Source: Eledone cirrhosa (lineage: Eukaryota). Taken from it: 64,000 nucleotides of DNA. Under the pieces are notes generated by a model. The model saw only the letters and a list, made by a program, of their open reading frames with translations. It had not been told where the DNA came from and ran no database searches. The stretch is taken from contig OZ024741.1 in the NCBI GenBank assembly GCA_964016885.1, forward strand, positions 37,200,001 through 37,264,000, written 5' to 3'. A program made the translations under genes and the position numbers. Below, in pieces: positions 47,085 to 61,448 of this stretch (position 1 is the stretch's first letter; every line of letters begins with the position of its first letter).

Positions 47085-47798
47085 AGGCACATGGCTTAGT
47101 GGTTAGAGCATTGGCCTCGCAATCGAAAGTTTGTGAGTTCAATTCTCAGACAGGGTGATGTGTTGTTTCCTTGAGCAAGACACATTGCTCCAGTTTACTC
47201 AGCTGTAGAAATGAGATGATAGGGACTGGGGTCCCTATCATTCCACTGCAAAGTGGTCGTGGAGGTGTCACGGCAAAAACCACCCAGCACTCACTGTAAA
47301 TGAGGTTGGTGTTAGGAAGGGCATCCAGCTGTAGAAATCAAGCCAGTATCAGTTCCCGTCCCACCCTTGCAAGCAGGGAGAAGTGGACGTAAAATGATGA
47401 TGATGATGACATGATGATGATATATCATCATTTCATTTTACGTGCGCTTTTCCCTGCTTGCAAGGGTGGGACGGGAACTGATTCTGGCTTGATTTCTACA
47501 GTTGGATGGCCTTCCTAACACCAACCTCATTTACAGTGAGTGCTGGGTGCTTTTTTGCTGTGGCACATCCACGACCACTTTGCAGTCGAATGATATGGAC
47601 CCCAGTCCCTATCATCTCATTTCTACAGCTGAGTAAACTGGAAACAACACATCACCCAGTCTGAGAATTGAACTCACAACCTTTTGATTGCTCTAACCAC
47701 TAAGCTATAGGGATCCCAGTCCTATCAGCTGAGTAAACTGGAGCAATCACCTGGTCAGATAATTGAACTCACAACCTTTTGATTACAAGGTTATATAT

Positions 47799-49638
47799 AT
47801 GCAGTTCGGGTTTGTGTCAGGCAAAAGTACCACAGACGCTCTTTTCATTGTACGACAACTACAGGAGAAGTACCTAACTAAAAGTAAACCCCTATACTTA
47901 GCTTTCGTCGACTTGGAGAAAGCCTTCGACAGAGTCCCCCGTTCCATTATCTGGTGGTCTCTTAGAAAACTAGGTGTTGACGAATGGCTTGTGAAAGCTA
48001 TACAAGCCATGTATAAAGAAACAGTCAGTAAGGTTAGAATTAACAACGAATATAGTGAAGAGTTTAGCGTAAAAGTTGGTGTCCATCAGGGCTCTGTTCT
48101 TAGCCCCCTACTATTTATTATTGGCCTTCAGGCTATAACAGAGGAGTTCAAGACCGGCTGCGCATGGGAACTCCTATACGCAGATGATCTAACGCTCATA
48201 GCTGAATCAATGACCGAACTAGAGAAGAAATTCCAAACATGGAAGCACGGCCTAGAATCAAAAGGCCTTAAAATTAACCTGGCTAAGACTAAAGTTCTAG
48301 TTTGTAGGAAAGAAAATAAGGCGGCGGTCCCATCTGGGAAATGGCCATGCTCAGTGTGTAGGAAAGGCGTAGGTAGAAACTCCATTTTATGTCCCAAATG
48401 CAAAGTATGGGTGCATAAAAGATGTAGTGGGATCACAGGTAAGCTAACTAAGAACATAGATTTTACATGTGGCCGGTGCTCTGGTGCAATAAGTAGCAGC
48501 AAGTGCCCACAAAATACTAGCTCCTTCAACTGCGCAGAGGGTTCTATAGAAATAGTGGACAGCTTCCGTTACCTGGGTGACAAAATCAGCAGTGGGGGAG
48601 GGTGCTCTGAAAGTACAGTAGCTAGAGTCAGAACTGGATAGAAAAAGTTCAGAGAGCTTATATCACTATTAGCCGCTAGAGGGTTCTCCCTAAAAATGAA
48701 AGGCAGGTTATACGATGCCTGCATACGAACAGCAATACTGCATGGCAGTGAGACCTGGGCATTGTGTGCAGAGGATATACGCAGACTAGAGAGGAACGAA
48801 GCTTGCATGCTCCGCTGGATGTGCAATAGTAATATACGTGAACGGCAAAGCATAAACGAACTAAGGAAAAAATTAGAAATAAGAGGGATCAGATGTTGTT
48901 TACTCGAGAGAAGGCTACGTTGGTACGGTCACGTGATACGCATGAAAGACGACAGCTGTATAACAAAGTGCAGGGCAATAAAGATAGACGGTAGCCACGG
49001 AGTAGGCAGACCCAGAAAAACATGGGACGAGCTGATAAATTCCGACCTCACACGCTTACACCTCTCCAAGACAATGTCACTGGACCGAGACCTTTGGCGG
49101 TACTCAGTAATAGAGAAGACCCGCCTTACCTAAATACAAAGTAAAAACCTACTACAGTCAGTAGGCATCTCTATCAAAACACCCCCCCGTCCCACCACCT
49201 CCACCCCATCCACACCGCCCCTTTCAATGTAAAGTTATGTTGGTCCCACAACATCCAGGCCGAAACAAATGAGATCGTGTAGGTGTCATGACAAAAAACA
49301 CACAGTCCACGCTGTAAATGTGGCCGTGTAGGCAACACGGTAAAAACCTCCCAGCCCCACACTGTAAATGTGGTTGGTGTTAGGAAGGGCATCCAGCTGT
49401 AGAAAACCCGCCAGACAGTCCACGCTGTAATGTGGCCGTGTAGGCAACACGGTAAAAACCTCCCAGCCCCACACTGTAAATGTGGTTGGTGTTAGGAAGG
49501 GCATCCAACTGTAGAAAACCCGCCAGACAGTCCTATGCGAGCAAGACAACCACTCTTGCCTCAAGTGGGAAAACCCCCGTCCAAACCCATGCAAGCGTGG
49601 AACACGGACGCTAAACCTGATGATGATGATGATGATGA
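47799..49638 (+). mobile_element. 5'-truncated RTE LINE, same family as 10237; 3'UTR has a ~120 bp tandem duplication
   Basis: QFGF..., YADDL, C4HC3 finger, VDSFRYLG and RRLRWYGHV; single stop at 48639. Confidence 0.93.
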
Positions 49639-49649
49639 TATATATATAT

Positions 49650-51010
49650 ATGGGAGGGTCATATTTGTGTAATATTGCCAGCATTAATAACAGAACACAC
49701 TCACTGTTTGGTTGGTTTTCGCTTTTCGCTTTTCGCATACAGTTCTCTGGCTACAACCAAAGAGACAGAGTCAGAGTATACGAAGGAGCCATGGAAAAGT
49801 ATAAGACCCTCATAGAACTGGACATGAAAGGAATTTGCCCATTATACAGGAGCAAATCATGGAATAGCTTAGATAGGGCTAGACATAAGATAGGGAAAGC
49901 CACCTCATGGTACGACAACCAGAGATACCAGAGTGTCATGTTTGTGGATGCTACTCCTGGAGGGAAATTAGCTAACCAGTGTAGAAAGGCCCTGAGAAAG
50001 ACCCACTTAAAGATTAAGGTGGTAGAAAAGCCAGGAACCACCATAAAATCCCTGATCAGCAAAACCAACCCTTTTAAGAAAACCCACTGTACTAATAGGA
50101 AATGTATCATATGTAAGGTAAACCCCCGGATAAACTGTAAAACTAGAAACGTAGTCTATAGCATAAGATGTACAGAGGGTACTTGCAGAAACATGACTAC
50201 AACATACATAGGCGAGACAGCTCGTAGCATAGGTGAAAGGATAGACCAACACTGGGGGGAACTAAAAGGACGAAAAAACGGGTCAGTACTATACGAACAT
50301 GCCAGACAACAACACGACGGTAATATAGACAACATAGAAATTAGAATAATATCTAAACATAGAAATGACCCAGCAGATAGGCAAATCAGAGAGGCCAGTG
50401 AAATAGAACTTAGAAGGCCAAGACTAAACAGAAAGAATGAATGGAATAACAACAACACCCAAACAAACAACACTGACCTAAGAGAAGTATAAATAAATAA
50501 ATAAATAGATAAATAAATAAATAAATACATACACAAGCACAGTAACAACAAACACATATACACACACACACTAGTAAAGATAGAATACATTAACCGATAC
50601 ACAGTCACCCAATCACGAACACACATCAAACAAAACACTATACACACACGCAAACGCATGCGCAAAGAAGACAAAATAAAATAAACAAACGAACAAATAA
50701 ATAAATATATAAACAGACTAAATAAAGATGGCGTAGACATACAATGTAACGGGAGGAAACAATAGCACCACTGACGATGTTGCAGATGTGCCACGAAAGA
50801 ACTTTGATAAACTATATATATGTGTTTGTGTCTATATTGTATCTGTATTATTTTTGACCGTTGGTCAGTCAATGGCAACATTGAGGACCAAATAAATTAG
50901 ATTACCGATATAAAAGACACAGAAGCGAAAAGCGAAAACCAACCAAACAGTGAATGTGTTCTGTTATTAATTCTGGCAATATTACACAAATATGACCCTC
51001 CCCAAGTATA
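49650..51010 (+). mobile_element. Penelope-like element 3 (3' part with open GIY-YIG frame, inverted pLTR)
   Basis: CTNRKCIIC..NVVYSIRC..YIGETARSIGERIDQH..HARQQH..RQIREA. 49651-49735 is inverted at ~50920-51004. Confidence 0.9.
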
Positions 51011-53691: not shown

Positions 53692-54428
53692 TACGTCCAT
53701 TCTTCCATGCTAGCATGGGTTAGACTGGTTGTCCAGTTGTGGGCAGTAGCCGGTCGGCTGATCATGTCTTGCTCATATAGGAACTGATTCTGGCTTGATT
53801 TCTACAGCTGGATGCCCTTCCTAACACCAACCTCATTTATAGTGAGTGCTGAGTGTTTTTTTCTGTGGCACCTACACGTCCACTTTACAGTGTGGGCTGG
53901 GTGCTTTTTTGCCGTGGCACCTCCATGACCACTTTGCAGTGAGAGCGGGTGGAGGCATATTGTCTATATGCCTCAGCTTCGGCTTGTACCCATGGAGGGT
54001 CGGGTCTTCTGTATTACTGCGTGACACCAGAGGTCACGGTCATGTGTCATCGCCTTTGAGAGGTGTAATTGGTTAAGGTCAGCTTTTATCACCTCATCCC
54101 AGGTCTTCTTGAGTCTCCCCATTCTGCGGCTTCCATCGACTTCTAGTGTTCTGCACCTTTATGCAGCTGTCATCCTTCATACACATGACATGTCCATACC
54201 AACACAACCTCCTCTCCTGCACGCAGCATTTGATTCCCCTTATGCTCAGTCTCTCTCTCAATTCGTTTATGTTCTGCCGTTCACGTATATTACTATTACA
54301 CATCCATTGGAGCATGCAGGCTTCTTTTCTTTCTAATCTAAGCAAGTCTTCTACAGACAGCGCCCAGGTCTCACTACCATGTAACATTGCTGTTTGTATA
54401 CACACATCATATAGTCTGCCCTTCATAT
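53692..54428 (-). mobile_element. RTE 3' fragment (family of 12221)
   Basis: MKGRLYDVCIQTAMLHGSETW..RRLCWYGHVM and 3'UTR. Confidence 0.9.
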
Positions 54429-55463
54429 CCTAAACGGACGGTAGTCCGTTTAGTAATATTGTTGTGGTCGTGTTTTCGTTGGCAATCGTCTGTTTACGAC
54501 AGTACAGCGCGGCTCTACTTTATTTAACTTAGATAAAACTTATATGAGCATGAACAGTAGATCATTACGCATCTTTTGGCTTAAAAATCTAGAAATTTGG
54601 TCCAGCGGGAAAAAGTTTATAATCAAAGTTTGCTGATAAGTCTTGTGTTCAAGTGAGTGAGTAGTAAGCGTGACGCTGTGTGCATTTGATGCATCTATGA
54701 GAATCGGCCCGAGATAACAAGGGGAGGTAATTACGAGTCTCTCTCTCTCTACGGGGTCATCCAGAAATGACGAATTTTTTTCGCCGGAACTCTTGTGATT
54801 GATTGTGATTACGTTAGTCAAATGTATAGTCAAATCGCCGAATCCCCTCCTCCTAATTGACTACGTCATTTCTGAACGGCCCTACTTGCGTCAGTGTGAA
54901 ACATTACTTCACTTTTCACTGCTAAAATGCTTTTTAAATACTTCGTTAATAAAAATTTATGTTTATTATCAAAGCTATTTTTTGTACCAATCTATCAATA
55001 GTTTGCGAAAATATAGGTAAACATGTGAGTTAAATTTATTTTAATCACATCGATCGCTTTGTCGCACCGACTGTGACACTGTCTGACTGTCTGTCTGACT
55101 GACACCTTTGTCGGACCGACACCTTTGTTCAAGCGGACAACTTTGTGTCACTGACACCTTTGTTCGTGCCGGCATCTCTGCGAAACACCGATGACAACAA
55201 CCAGACCAAAATTTCACTTCATTCTTCATTCTTCTTCAAGACCGATCGCCGACCGATCGTATCGGTTGCTCTTCATATACCAGGTATTCAACAGATAGTT
55301 TGCACTTCTAGTATTATTAACAGTCGTGCGATTTTTTGTACCGATAGGTGCGAATAGTGCGCTATATTTTTGAACCGATAGGTGCGAATAGTGCGATGCG
55401 ATAGGTGCGAATAGTGTACAATATTTTCTGAGATTTGCATCCACTAATTTCGCTTAATTAAAA

Positions 55464-58400
55464 ATGATGTTTCGCCGCTTTTTGATCGGCTTATTCATTT
55501 TTTCCATGGCACGGAAATGGAGTATTTCCATTTCGAATCAAAACTTTTCACTAAAATCGGGCAATTGGACTGATCAAATTCACATTCATGCCAGTTTTTA
55601 CAAATCCAAAAAACGAAATTATCCTATTTCCAATCAGAAATATAGAACGCGCGCGTTAATCTTATCATTACTCATAATCGGTTGTGTCGAATTAAATCCT
55701 GGACCTGAATTTGAATTCAATGAGACTGACAAAGATCAAAACATTGATAATGAGAATGAAAAACGGAGAAAAACTGCAATTAGGAATAGGGAGTACAGAC
55801 AACGGAAAGCTCCAGAAATAAGAGAAAAAAGACAATCAGACGAAGCAAAATTTAAAAATAAGGCATGGCAAAAAGCATATAGACTGAGAAGAGGCGATGA
55901 GGGCAAAAGTCAGGAGGCATCGTATCAAAAAGTGGGCAGACTGAGGGCAGGTGATGAGGGCAAAAATCAGCATGCCTTGAATCAAAAAGAGCACAGAGTG
56001 AGAGCAGGCGATGAGGGCAAAAGTCAACAGGCATTGTATCAAAAAGCACACAGATTGAGAACAGGAGAAGAAGGAAAAGAAAAAGATGCCAGATATTTTT
56101 CACATTATTATTTTACAAATGCATGGTTGATACAACAAAAACACAAATTTTTGTACAGAAAAAAACGAATTCAACGATTTAAAGACATTCGCATGCAAAG
56201 GGAAATCATGTTACACAAATTCACAAAATCATATTTTGCTTCGAAAAAAGAAAAACCAAAAACTCGGGCACAGTATAGGAAGAAATTCAAACAGGGCCCT
56301 GAAAAAGTTTCCAAAATCTACAGAGAAGCACAGGGAATTCGAAATTTCATGTTTAATGAATTGAAAAAAACAATGGCTTCAGTTTATGCACACATCAAAT
56401 TAGCTAAGAAGGAGGGGTTGACTGCATACTGGGGGGAAATATTTTACCATACTTTCACAAATGAACACTTTCTATTCCCAAAAAGTAGAGTTGATTATTT
56501 TCCTCTAACACAACTTGAAAACCACAAATTTCTGACTGATGACTGTCCAACAAATGAGTGCAGGTGTAAAGATGGTGATGAGCCAAGTGAGGGAGGTGCA
56601 CAAGGAGAGGGAGGTGAGCAAAGTGAGAAAGGTGCACAAAGAGGGGGAGATGAGCCAAGTGAGAAAGGTGCACAAAGAGGGGGAGATGAGCCAAGTGAGG
56701 GAGGTGCACAAGGAGAGAGAGATGAGCAAAGTGAGAAATGTGCACAAAGAGGGGGGGATGAGCCAAGTGAGAAAGGTGCACAAAGAGGGGGAGATGAGCC
56801 AAGTGAGGAAGGCAAGCAAAGAGGGGGAGATGAGCCAAGTGAGGGAGGTGCACAAAGATGGGGGGGTGAGCCAAGTGAGAAATGTCCACAAAGAGGGGTA
56901 GATGAGCCAACTGATGGAGGTGAGCAAAGTGAGACAGGTGCACAAAAAGAGGGGGGTGAGCAAAGTGACCAGGAAGATTTTGATGGCAGAAAATGTACAG
57001 AACTTCTGACTTTGGCTAGATTGTGCAAATTTGGTCCCCCATCAAATTGCCCAGATCCCACTGCACGTCTAAAGCTAGCTAAACGAATGCACAAGGCCAT
57101 ACATGAACTTTCACCTGATTTGACTGTGTCCCAAATTCGGAAAAAAATGGAAATCTTTGAGCAGTGTAAAGGATTCCATAGGGACAACATCTATTGCATA
57201 GGACAGTCTGACTGCACATATGGACTTGAACTGATTCGAAGTATGGCTCCTCACTCTCCTCGCATCCGTACACTTCTGAGATGTGTGTACAAAGTGAGAT
57301 CAGTCTGTGTCTGGCTAGATTCCTATGACATTTCAATCTTGGAAGGAAATTGGTCAATGTTTGATGATCTAGTAAATCCCCAAAACATGTCCGACAATCT
57401 GCTAAGCCGTTTGAATGAGATAGTGGAAAATGAAAATGAGAGCTTGCATTCAGAATCCTCAATCATGGCCAATTTTGCATCCATTATCAAACATTTTAAT
57501 AAAGAGATTAAAAAAATGAAAATCAACTCCTGTGACATTTGCAAACAACGAGAATTAGATGCTAAACTCAAAGTCTGGGAGGATTGGAGCCCTTTGACAA
57601 ATCCCTATCTCCTGGAAACCATTCAACAAAACTACTCTCTACGATGTACGATTTGCTCTACATGTAGAAATAGTCTTGTCAAAAAGTCGATACCATCATT
57701 GGCTTCAATCAATGGCCTAGAAGTGGTCAAAATTCCAAATGTGTTGTCAAAGTTGAACATGTATGAGCAGATTTTGATCCAAATGGCCAAATGCTTCATC
57801 AATGTCATTAAATTGTCACCCTATCGTTTCAAAGGTGCACCATCAGATCTAGTAGCTGCTATTAAAGGAATAGCAACTCACATGCCACTACCAGTAGAAA
57901 ACACAATCAATCATGTAATGAAAAAAACTTCCATCGAATCAAAATGATGCATTTGAAATAATTGTTGATAGTCTTCCAACTAAAAAGGGCACAATTTGGC
58001 GATCGCTAGTGAATATGCAAAATGTCTTTGATGCCTTGGAGTGGCTGAAAAACAACAATGACATTTACAATGACATTTTGATAGACAGAACCACAAATTT
58101 AGAGGACATTGTTACATGCACCGGTGAAAATGTTTCCATCAATTTTCCACACATTCTCACACAAACTGGTGCTGAAACAGTCTATGAACACCATACTATA
58201 CAGCAAATCAAGCCTGCACTCCCAAATCAAAAGGACCTTGAACTGTTTCGCATGAAACGAGTTGAAGGTACTCTTCTTCCGGACAATGATCCAAACCAGG
58301 ATCTGATATGCTTCCCCCACTTATTCCCTAAAGGAAAATTTGGAATGATGCACATGAACAGACCCCATGGTAGAGTAAAGCCATACATGTTCATCAGAAA

Positions 58401-59358
58401 CAGACTCAGACATGAGGACCCCCGCTTTCGTAGAGACATTCAGTACATTCTCTACAATTTGGACAAGGCTGACAAAAGAGCACTAGATTCTGGCATTTAT
58501 GCCGTAATGAAATCACTCAAAAGTCCAAAATTGACACTTGCTCAATTTTATAAAAGATTGGAAGCCAATGATGAACAATTGGAAAGTGGTTTGTCAATGA
58601 TGATGGCGAATGTTCGTGGAACAAAGCCATTTTGGGAACGCAAGTGCTCCGACTTGAATGCCATAGATGAGAAATTCGGTCCTGCCCATTTGTTTATCAC
58701 TCTTTCATGTGCTGAATACTTTTGGCCAGTCTTGAGGGAATTTTTGGAAAAACTCAATAAAGACATTGCAAATGTTGAAACAAGGCCGATAGGGAATCTC
58801 TGTGCAAATGATGTTGTGGCTGTCAGTGAGTACTTTCACCATCGTTTTAGTGTTGTTTTTCATGATGTAATTTTAAATAAAAAAGGCCCATTTGGGGAAA
58901 TTATTCATTACTTTTGGCGACTCGAGTATCAACAACGTGGTGCCCCTCACATTCACCTTAAAGCCTGGGTTCGGGACAATGTAATTTTTGACAAAGATCC
59001 TAAAGAAAAAATCAAGCAATTTATTGAACGCTGCATTACTTGCCGGCTACCATCCCCTGTGGCCAGCCCAAACTTGGCAAATCTCGTTAGACGGTTCCTA
59101 GTCCATACTTGTGGCAAAGCATGCTGGAGAATAGTGGGGAGAGGGAAAAATTTGCGTAAAAAATGCCGTTTTGGTTTTGCACATGCAGTGGGGCCATTTC
59201 GATTTTTCTCAGTTTCTGAAAGTATCAAATCACGAAAAAATGGTCAAATCAGTCAAATGTCACTAAAAGCCAGGTGGTCGATAACAACTTCTATAAGATT
59301 AGTTACATGCTCACACATTGGATCACCTCTCATCAATGGCATTGGGTGTCTGAGATAA
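55464..59358 (+). pseudogene. Helitron RepHel N-terminal and Rep region; one frameshift at an A7 run (57921-57927); truncated before the catalytic Tyr motif and helicase
   Basis: CSTCRNSL..KSIPSLASINGL..LNMYEQILI, ALEWLKNNN, CFPHLFPKG, DPRFRRD, NVRGTKPFW, LFITLSCAE (motif 1), RLEYQQRGAPHIH (HUH) and HTC..CRFGF. Confidence 0.9.
56575..56970 (+). repeat. In-frame 36-bp minisatellite (~11 x GDEPSEKGAQRG)
   Basis: Seen in both DNA and translation. Confidence 0.92.
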
Positions 59359-59612
59359 TCGTGGAGATAACTGATGAAGTCACAAATGAAGTAATGGTCT
59401 TCCAGTGTGAACAACTCCCTATATCCATTGATATATGTGATGGCTTCCGATTCATAGGTGCATTTTATGAGGAATTCCATGCATCCGATTTTCAGTGATT
59501 CAATGGGCATTTTATCAGAGATGATAAGGTATTTGACCACGTTTTGCTTTGTAAGTAAATTGGAGAGAATCACTGCAGTCAAAGTCATTTCTTTGCATGG
59601 GTTTTTGTTCAT
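59253..59612 (-). CDS. Small ORF or exon with a BACK (SPOP-type BTB C-terminal)-like signature
   Basis: ILSNLLTKQNVVKYLIISDKMPIESLKIGCMEFL fits LxxxNVxxxLxxADxxxxxxLKxxCxxFI; it is preceded by acceptor-like TTTAACTTTTTAG. Confidence 0.5.
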   Translation of the reverse strand: MNKNPCKEMTLTAVILSNLLTKQNVVKYLIISDKMPIESLKIGCMEFLIKCTYESEAITYINGYRELFTLEDHYFICDFISYLHDYLRHPMPLMRGDPMCEHVTNLIEVVIDHLAFSDI

Positions 59613-59885
59613 TCTAAAAAGTTAAAATGATAAAGTATTACTACTATATAACTTACATCTATTGTTGTAACACCATTGAAATGCACAAGTTTCACCAATT
59701 CACTATTATGCACTAATCATCTCAAATGCATTCATGATTTACTAGCTTTGTCATTAAGCCAGTTGCCTCAACTAGATTGCAATTATACTCAAAAGAACTT
59801 TAAAATGTCAATCACTTGTCAGTAATTCACTATGATCATTTAATTATTAGATAGTTGTTGCTTGCATTGCCTTAAAAAATAGTAG

Positions 59886-60939
59886 ACCAGATAGAAAAAT
59901 GCGTACAGCAAAAAAAAGTAATATTGTTGGAATATAAACCTTTAAAAATACAGGACAAGAAACTAAAATAAAACTTTAAAAGAATAGGACAAGAAACTAA
60001 GATAAAACTTTAAAGAATTGGACAAGAAATAAAAAATTTTACAATAATATTAGTGGCAAAAGTTTTTTATTCGTTTCCTGTGCTATGTCCCAGTATCTTG
60101 ATTAGTGCATAATAATTGTCATGTTCTCATTGTGCGTTGCCCCTGAGCGGTTGGTTGGGGTTGGTTGGCTGAGCAGTTCTGCTCCGTCAGAATGACCATT
60201 GCAAGAAGAATTGGCCGATGCAGCTGCAGGTCTCCTCCAAGAATGCACTTTTGGTCCCGCAACACCAGACGAAGATGGAGAAGATGACCGGGACAAGATG
60301 TCGACTCTGACCACCGACTACGGCACCTCCCTCAACCACCGGTCCTCTCTCCCTCTGTCCCGTCATCCCTCCAGTCCTCCTGCTCCCCCTTCCTGTACCA
60401 GAAAGCTGTGGCACGCATTCATCTGGACTGCCGGACTTGAACTCAAGGACAAGATGCAAGGAGAAGATGGACGGGTTGGTCAAGATCAAGGATGAGCGGG
60501 ACGACAAGACCGTCCGCTGCTGCTCAAGATCTGTGCTCATGGGCCCATGGGTCCATTCACATTATGCATGACACATGAGGCGTGTTGCCGAATGATGAAA
60601 TAGGGGTATGGTTATGGCCCAATTGGTGTTCAAACCAGGATCAAATGATCCCTCCCGGTCTGACGACGACCTCTGAATGTGGAACCCAGAGCCTATGAAT
60701 GTGGAACTCGATTTTTTACCAATAAAAATTTTGCCACTAATATTATTGTAAAATTTTTTATTTCTTGTCCAATTCTTTAAAGTTTTATCTTAGTTTCTTG
60801 TCCTATTCTTTTAAAGTTTTATCTTAGTTTCTTGTCCTATTCTTTTAAAGTTTTATTTTAGTTTCTTGTCCTGTATTTTTAAAGGTTTATATTCCAACAA
60901 TATTACTTTTTTTTTGCTGTACGCATTTTTCTATCTGGT
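59886..60939. repeat. Inverted repeat (arms 59886-60070 and 60721-60939) with ~35-bp subrepeats, enclosing a GC-richer 650 bp segment
   Basis: Near-perfect reverse complement; three GGACAAGAAA-containing subunits on the left and four on the right. Confidence 0.9.
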
Positions 60940-61448
60940 ATATATAATAATGAAATTATATATATTATTATATGAAATTATATATATTATTATATGGCTT
61001 AGTGGTTAGAGCATTGGCCTTGCAATCGAAAGGTTGTGAGTTCAATTCTCAGACCGGGTGATGTGTTGTTTCCTTGAGCAAGACACTTTATTTCACATTG
61101 CTCCAGTTTACTCAGCTGTAGAAATGAGATGATAGGGCCTGGGGTCCATATCATTCCACTGCAAAGTGGTTGTGGAGGTGCCATGGCAAAAAAGCACCCA
61201 GCACTCACTGTAAATGAGGTTGGTGTTAGGAAGGGCATCCAGCTGTAGAAATCAAGCCAGAATCAGATCCCGTCCCACCCTTGCAAGCAGGGAAAAGCGG
61301 ACGTAAAAATGATGATGATGATGATGATGATGATATATATATTCTAAATAAATTAAATTAAATTAAATTAAAAGAGTCATGTCCGAGACATGCACTATAT
61401 CCACTGTAGAATAAGCTCAAAGATTCCAATGAATAGATCCAAGCATTT

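Follow-up and report, generated by a model that had tools for sequence, protein, structure and literature searches.

A conserved 2A-like peptide near the start of a Helitron transposase in Eledone cirrhosa, with a predicted role in StopGo translation

One family of rolling-circle transposons in the genome of Eledone cirrhosa, here called family A, carries a conserved 2A-like peptide near the start of its Helitron transposase (RepHel), where a StopGo event would probably separate a disposable leader from the transposase and would probably also dampen transposase output. Skipping is, with good confidence, the predicted main function of the peptide, and some form of ribosome recoding or attenuation is predicted with high confidence; with four Leu at positions −19 to −10, reduced output and clean skipping are equally likely. 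The peptide lies in a stretch of 64,000 nucleotides (assembly GCA_964016885.1, contig OZ024741.1, positions 37,200,001 to 37,264,000 of the forward strand), referred to below as the window. Translated from the ATG at 55464, residues 60–81 read YRTRALILSLLIIG-CVELNPG/P, where the slash marks the predicted skip site, or YRTRALILSLLIIGCVELNPGP as an unbroken string, with EFEF next; the G80 codon is 55701–55703 and the P81 codon 55704–55706. The first-pass annotation had recognised the motif, which stands, at residues ~61–81, a span that translation moves to 60–81. Coordinates of the peptide and of the element that surrounds it are given in Table 1.

Table 1. Features of the Helitron copy and its 2A-like peptide (window coordinates)
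Feature	Position	Strand	Basis or remark
Entire Helitron copy with an internal deletion; protein of the HLE2 group, ends proto-Helentron-like	54428..60938	+	Alignment of copies
5' terminal 10-bp hairpin (54430–54453) and 12-bp subterminal inverted repeat (54453–54464)	54430..54464	+	Copy comparison
Leader upstream of the predicted skip site, beginning with a hydrophobic 11-mer	55464..55703	+	80 aa from Met1
N-terminal RepHel ORF, 827 aa, DUF6570 at residues 740–819, ended by a frameshift	55464..57947	+	Pfam
37-residue block Y53–D89, identical between subfamilies	55620..55730	+	Ranks second in length among the identical runs of the 827-aa ORF
2A-like peptide, made up of a basic stretch, a Leu/Ile-rich helix, G at p11 and the core CVELNPG/P	55641..55706	+	Translation, motif comparison
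Core CVELNPG/P	55683–55706	+	Predicted skip between 55703 and 55704
Coding tandem repeat, GGDEPSE-type, missing from the sister subfamily	56570..56968	+	Copy comparison
RepHel segment with Rep (HUH); its junction with the 3' end is at 59244	57922..59244	+	Helitron_like_N, E 1.6e-26
3' region: fold-back 59883–60074 vs 60724–60942, right inverted repeat 60895–60906, terminal CTGG 60935–60938	59883..60942	+	

The octamer CVELNPGP conforms to the core definition (D/G/C/N)(V/I)ExNPG/P. The chance of such an octamer is about 7e-6 per 827-aa ORF of the same composition, and NPGP occurs once across the six frames of the 64-kb window. Upstream, RALILSLLIIG is in register, as judged by inspection, with nine canonical 2A-like sequences (an L-rich helix ending in G at p11); its LLIIG stretch resembles the L-rich LLLLSG class described in the consulted part of PMC12846837, and a Leu occupies position −14 (counted, like the four at −19 to −10, from the peptide sequence). 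Published work holds that a Leu-rich nascent helix and the core octamer together stall the peptidyl transferase centre, the chain then being freed with no stop codon involved. That literature counts L-rich upstream motifs with a terminal G among the recognised 2A classes, the core is (D/G/C/N)(V/I)ExNPGP, and Cys stands at p12 in 85 of 2,465 viral octapeptides (PMC12846837, in part). Tested p12=C variants were >95% active in their native viral context (PMC12846837, in part), which weakens the earlier caveat that, with Cys in place of the consensus Asp, activity may be low or absent; since p12=C is among the StopGo variants published as functional, the caveat falls, subject to the dependence of activity on context. 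According to sections of a recent preprint, three to six Leu at −19 to −10 go along with a drop in protein abundance, the majority of the retrotransposon 2A-like peptides tested fall in reduction classes (70% for ORF1p, 59% for ORF2p), and any 2A-like phenotype was seen in only 821 of 3,271 non-viral 2A-like peptides (bioRxiv 10.64898/2026.06.17.732966). Retrotransposon 2As are described as lying 40–80 aa from the start (PMC3708506, in part), a range that includes the Helitron peptide at 80 aa.

We propose that the nascent peptide, a class-A 2A near the start of the transposase, would likely lead the ribosome to skip the Gly–Pro bond G80/P81. The skip would release the leader, the freed transposase would begin PEFEF, and the 2A would likely lower the amount of transposase made. 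The leader probably has no job of its own, as its pN is about equal to its pS (0.184 and 0.168 over leader residues 15–50, window copy against L036, a copy of the sister subfamily A2), and the benefit to the element may lie in self-restraint of transposition or in ridding a nuclear enzyme of its hydrophobic leader. Leader length is uncertain, varying by start or subfamily: 80 aa from Met1, 66 aa from a second Met (Met15, at 55506, which is the only Met seen in one sub-branch), or 131 aa in A2. A candidate splice acceptor is located immediately upstream of 55638. In both subfamilies the leader opens with the hydrophobic 11-mer (mean hydropathy 2.5–3.0; the 2A helix scores 3.1), a stretch that resembles a signal peptide at 55464–55511 of the window and is present twice in frame in A2. 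Upstream of the ORF, the sub-branch comprising L026, L027, L028, L029 and L035 has the region 54677–55480 replaced by other sequence with long tandem repeats, and lacks Met1; L026 and L032 bear a second 5' terminus inserted inside Rep.

The Helitron that encodes this peptide is delimited by copies that align from 54425–54427 to ~60942, with a start A/TC, an end CTGG/T (CTAG/T in A2) and flanks that differ between copies. In the stem of its hairpin, A2 has a compensatory C-G/G-C swap. The pair of 12-bp repeats at 54453–54464 and 60895–60906 constitutes short (sub)terminal inverted repeats, a trait of HLE2 elements, and the union of Rep (HUH), PIF1 helicase and DUF6570 in one protein, with the helicase read from sister copies, is another; DUF6570 and UCH are described as marks of the HLE2 group (PMC11417382, in part). 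Helitron_like_N sits in the next frame (57922–59358, Pfam), the frame break near 57920–57927 being one extra base in an A run. A deletion has removed the PIF1 helicase and UCH domain from the window copy; in other copies both follow beyond 59244. The window copy is dead because it has lost helicase and UCH and suffered the one-base frameshift. The placement of a 2A at the N-terminus of a Helitron RepHel, as first annotated, is upheld, with the correction that RepHel is not producible from this copy; the 2A claim concerns active masters of the family. The 2A frame runs on into DUF6570 and Rep in L036, with the peptide in frame within a longer ORF.

The ends of the element are unusual, with TC, the hairpin and the 12-bp repeat at the 5' side and, at the 3' side, a fold-back of ~190 bp, the partner repeat and then CTGG. 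The 5' stem-loop, A-T insertion and CTAG-type end appear to resemble those of proto-Helentron / HLE2-reverse elements. Assignment to the canonical Helentrons was rejected on the presence of UCH in place of an AP endonuclease, the A/TC...CTRR/T ends and the 5' hairpin, against a T-T insertion and a 3' stem-loop. In families A and B, RepHel ends in UCH (a USP-type deubiquitinase), which is read in frame with the helicase C-terminus (L036:8065–9585; L039:2786–9475). Elsewhere in the window, 47763–49133 holds an adjoining decayed RT-plus-PHD retrotransposon, and 49515–50492 holds a 325-aa frame lacking a Pfam match, which looks like a Penelope-type endonuclease end.

The evidence that the peptide matters to the element comes from a comparison of copies across the 3.0-Gb genome, which holds at least 40 copies of the family (40 matches among the 40 scored of 193 candidates); a Rep search yielded 67 matches among the 150 scored of 974 candidates, from several families. 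The A2 subfamily (L036, L037), 85% identical over an 80-aa Rep query, carries the identical peptide. Between the window copy and L036, residues 56–81 show 9.0 synonymous differences and no nonsynonymous one (pS 0.47, pN 0), and the regions downstream of the 2A have a pN against A2 of 0.08–0.12; a Fisher test on residues 56–81, a span chosen after the motif was known, gave p = 3e-4 against residues 82–370 and 3e-5 against the leader. These values indicate that the peptide is under purifying selection, and recent sequence exchange between the subfamilies is excluded because pS is high. Identity between the subfamilies continues for eight residues beyond the predicted skip site. Zero amino-acid change is found in 50 of the 653 26-codon windows of the N-terminal ORF, which fall in four blocks, the 2A block and three others. 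As judged from sequence comparison, conservation is evidence of function, but because those three other N-terminal stretches are equally invariant it does not say which function.

Of the 26 distinct loci of family A that were read, 21 keep the core in frame (12/16 and 9/10 by subfamily), and the remaining five bear single-copy substitutions or indels. A 40-aa peptide query gave 53 genome matches of 82–100% identity, and at the 26 distinct loci read the sequence belongs to a Helitron copy. Some 30 further matches have an open frame of ~221 aa, and seven of eight such loci stop matching the full-length A2 copy shortly past the 2A, as would be expected of non-autonomous derivatives keeping leader and 2A. 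In these short A2 derivatives (L071–L078; ~30 places), the ~221-aa frame is made up of the leader and 2A plus a brief tail. A fully intact ORF was not seen in family A: both long A2 copies share a stop within the helicase (TAA at L036:8062–8064 and the equivalent in L037), followed by a 507-aa open frame, and this shared stop would reflect either descent from a defective master or stop bypass. Three contig runs of one sample contained the same subfamily variants only.

Beyond family A, the same position can be examined in two further families of the genome. Family C (L045, L057) is decayed, 42–67% identical to family A in RepHel pieces and separated from it by a Rep path distance of 0.53; at the same place, both of its copies read HKSHALI.LML.II, then an expanded G run, then (V)QSNPGP, with Q for E and the frame broken by the G run in both. 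Three further loci, L047, L052 and L081, cluster with family C; in L047 and L052 the N-terminal region is missing or unreadable. With its synonymous-only divergence from A2 and its recognisable counterpart in decayed family C, the motif proves to be conserved in related Helitrons, a point on which the first-pass proposal had been left to stand or fall. Family B, the sister clade, has intact ORFs of 2087–2245 aa and no NPGP in any frame at the six loci read, including ~2.7 kb upstream; the peptide is therefore dispensable in a close relative, unless an exon lying farther 5' encodes one. Several intact ORFs of 2230–2245 aa with near-identical Rep scores occur among the family B copies L038–L043, which look young. 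In a quick tree of 87 rows (78 distinct proteins of 131 eligible from the database plus genome loci; SH-aLRT, without bootstrap), family A and the family C group join with an SH-aLRT of 94, under the starred level, and family B is their sister. The grouping of A with C suggests that the 2A was inherited by descent in these families.

A search of RepHel proteins for the motif, recommended when the peptide was first noted, found the strict core upstream of Rep in four of 270 relatives, against 0.0025 expected, all in other lineages; the 270 comprise overlapping sets of 24, 120 (the best of 376) and 150 (the best of 4440), and 266 of them are without the motif. The fraction may be an undercount because predicted proteins often lack their true N-terminus. 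If only relatives with 900 or more residues ahead of the Rep motif are counted, the figure is 4/80, the other 76 being without the core. The core stands at residue 88 in P0112, ahead of a Herpes_teg_N domain, and near residue 445 in P0118, P0124 and P0134; in P0124 an SGNH/GDSL domain precedes it and STPR repeats come after, with DUF6570, OTU, Rep, PIF1 and endonuclease further along. All four proteins lie far from family A in the quick tree, on which the 2A label requires four changes, at least three of them forced by starred branches; three changes are compatible with one gain and two losses. Loose NPG matches in P0027, P0147 and P0170 lie within the protein body and outside any 2A context, and were left uncounted. 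The initial Rep search gave 24 relatives, many of which look N-terminally incomplete, and none with NPGP, and a weak search of longer proteins with the 60-aa 2A region gave nine candidates, none at E <= 10. L098, the sole genomic match to a suspected 2A-less relative, was set aside as a short chance match with no Helitron similarity.

The genome also holds 2A motifs of other kinds. The degenerate DNA pattern Gx(V/I)(E/Q)xNPGP has 68 matches, against 0 for the reversed control, comprising 46 in family A, one in family C, 16 of the GD(V/I)ExNPGP type and five others. A PHD finger follows the 16 GD(V/I)ExNPGP-type matches where these were read, and 2A-PHD is a known retrotransposon layout (PMC3708506, in part); the copies are decayed, with only weak RT matches nearby. 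Two decayed repeat families (L086–L093, L095–L097) have GDVESNPGP or GDIEINPGP directly before the PHD finger, like retrotransposon 2A-PHD starts. The five others (four GxIQSNPGP and one GRVQTNPGP) were dropped as short frames with no Helitron similarity. Searches of the leader by blastn and tblastn against 16 of the 21 non-Helitron motif loci gave no significant match, the best (E 0.09) covering the core only. The concern that the N-terminal segment might be a LINE fragment fused in frame thus finds no echo in these 16 loci beyond the core itself, and recent capture of the 2A from a retrotransposon is not supported by these comparisons.

How far do these observations favour skipping over other uses of the same residues? 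The strongest competitor, itself unlikely, is that the peptide is mainly a stall or attenuator helix, at which ribosomes would pause or fall off, lowering total transposase and seldom restarting cleanly. The Leu count lies in the range tied to reduced abundance, a Leu stands at −14, retrotransposon 2A-like peptides mostly belong to the reduction classes, and self-restraint has already been proposed for L1Tc; however, the core matches a variant whose skipping exceeds 95% (>95%) in viral contexts, and the skipping and reduction classes hardly differ in sequence, so that this explanation overlaps with the preferred one. Less probable is retention of the stretch for another job of the full-length protein, as a signal, membrane anchor or dual-targeting element, with skipping partial or absent. 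A hydrophobic 11-mer at the leader start in both subfamilies, a 2A helix of comparable hydropathy, identity that reaches D89 and the existence of 2A-like signal sequences, e.g. in sea urchin (PMC4981915, in part), would all suit such a role, but a generic signal does not need an invariant VExNPGP, and the hydrophobic N-terminal stretch varies in sequence and precedes the first Met in one sub-branch.

Equally improbable is that the peptide is an inert passenger, either a 2A-bearing retrotransposon fragment captured in frame or a chance match. Helitrons do capture sequence, 16 of the 68 pattern matches belong to other 2A-bearing repeats of the 2A-PHD type, and family B manages without the peptide; yet the synonymous-only divergence largely refutes an inert passenger, family C has its motif at the same place, the leader is unlike the 16 other motif loci beyond the core, and the per-ORF chance of the octamer is very small. 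Ancient capture followed by use is possible, in which case the peptide would not be inert. StopGo separation of the leader from the transposase, combined with reduced output, is the reading we prefer.

The control of transposase in Helitrons is poorly understood. Searches of the literature found no report of a Helitron 2A, with most subscription journals outside their coverage. The main text of PMC12338488 contains neither 'helicase' nor 'transpos', and its four supplementary files contain none of 'helitron', 'PIF1', 'GCVE' or 'IIGC'; PMC10288884 mentions helitron and 2A peptide once each. The 2A/StopGo mechanism itself is known from RNA viruses and retrotransposons, and the novelty lies in its setting, a Helitron transposase, while the system as such is of a familiar kind. 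With a selected 2A in a DNA transposon, StopGo reaches a new class of element. We lean slightly toward the broader reading that rolling-circle transposons gained StopGo several times independently, processing and rationing their transposase in the manner of a viral polyprotein; the lineages concerned would be that of family A, that with the order leader-2A-Herpes_teg_N, and the SGNH-2A-OTU-endonuclease Helentron. On that broader reading, if true, no translational recoding control would have been described earlier than the 2A for a eukaryotic DNA transposase, and a cellular genome would provide natural Cys-type 2A peptides. The short peptide is directly testable in standard reporters, and the 2A-less sister family B offers a natural comparison for the proposal that the 2A restrains transposition.

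Among systems already described, and as far as the consulted parts of the sources extend, the ends and domains of the element appear to resemble those of proto-Helentron / HLE2-reverse elements (PMC4067079, PMC11417382, PMC5148889), which would have in common with it DUF6570, the lack of an endonuclease, a 5' stem-loop before the left inverted repeat, a 3' CTRR and A-T insertion, UCH being a known HLE2 cargo; unlike them, the Helitron starts with TC and not TT and has a long 3' fold-back, and those parts make no mention of a 2A. The sea urchin 2A-like signal sequences (PMC4981915) are likewise hydrophobic N-terminal 2A-like peptides, but they form the very N-terminus of a host protein, whereas in the Helitron the 2A lies 60–130 residues in. 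With viral StopGo/2A peptides of L-rich motifs 2/6 or class A (PMC12846837, PMC12338488) the Helitron peptide shares the core, G at p11 and the L-rich upstream hexapeptide; unlike these, it does not stand between two polyprotein domains, and its upstream product would be a short, fast-drifting leader. The 2As of APE-type non-LTR retrotransposons (L1Tc, Ingi, CR1, L2, Crack, Rex1; PMC3708506) are alike in their location in a mobile-element ORF at 40–80 aa, a Leu-rich helix followed by GxVExNPGP, patchy occurrence among relatives and a proposed role in self-restraint. The Helitron peptide differs from them in its rolling-circle DNA transposon host, in the DUF6570-Rep-PIF1-UCH order downstream in place of APE-RT, and in the Cys at p12.
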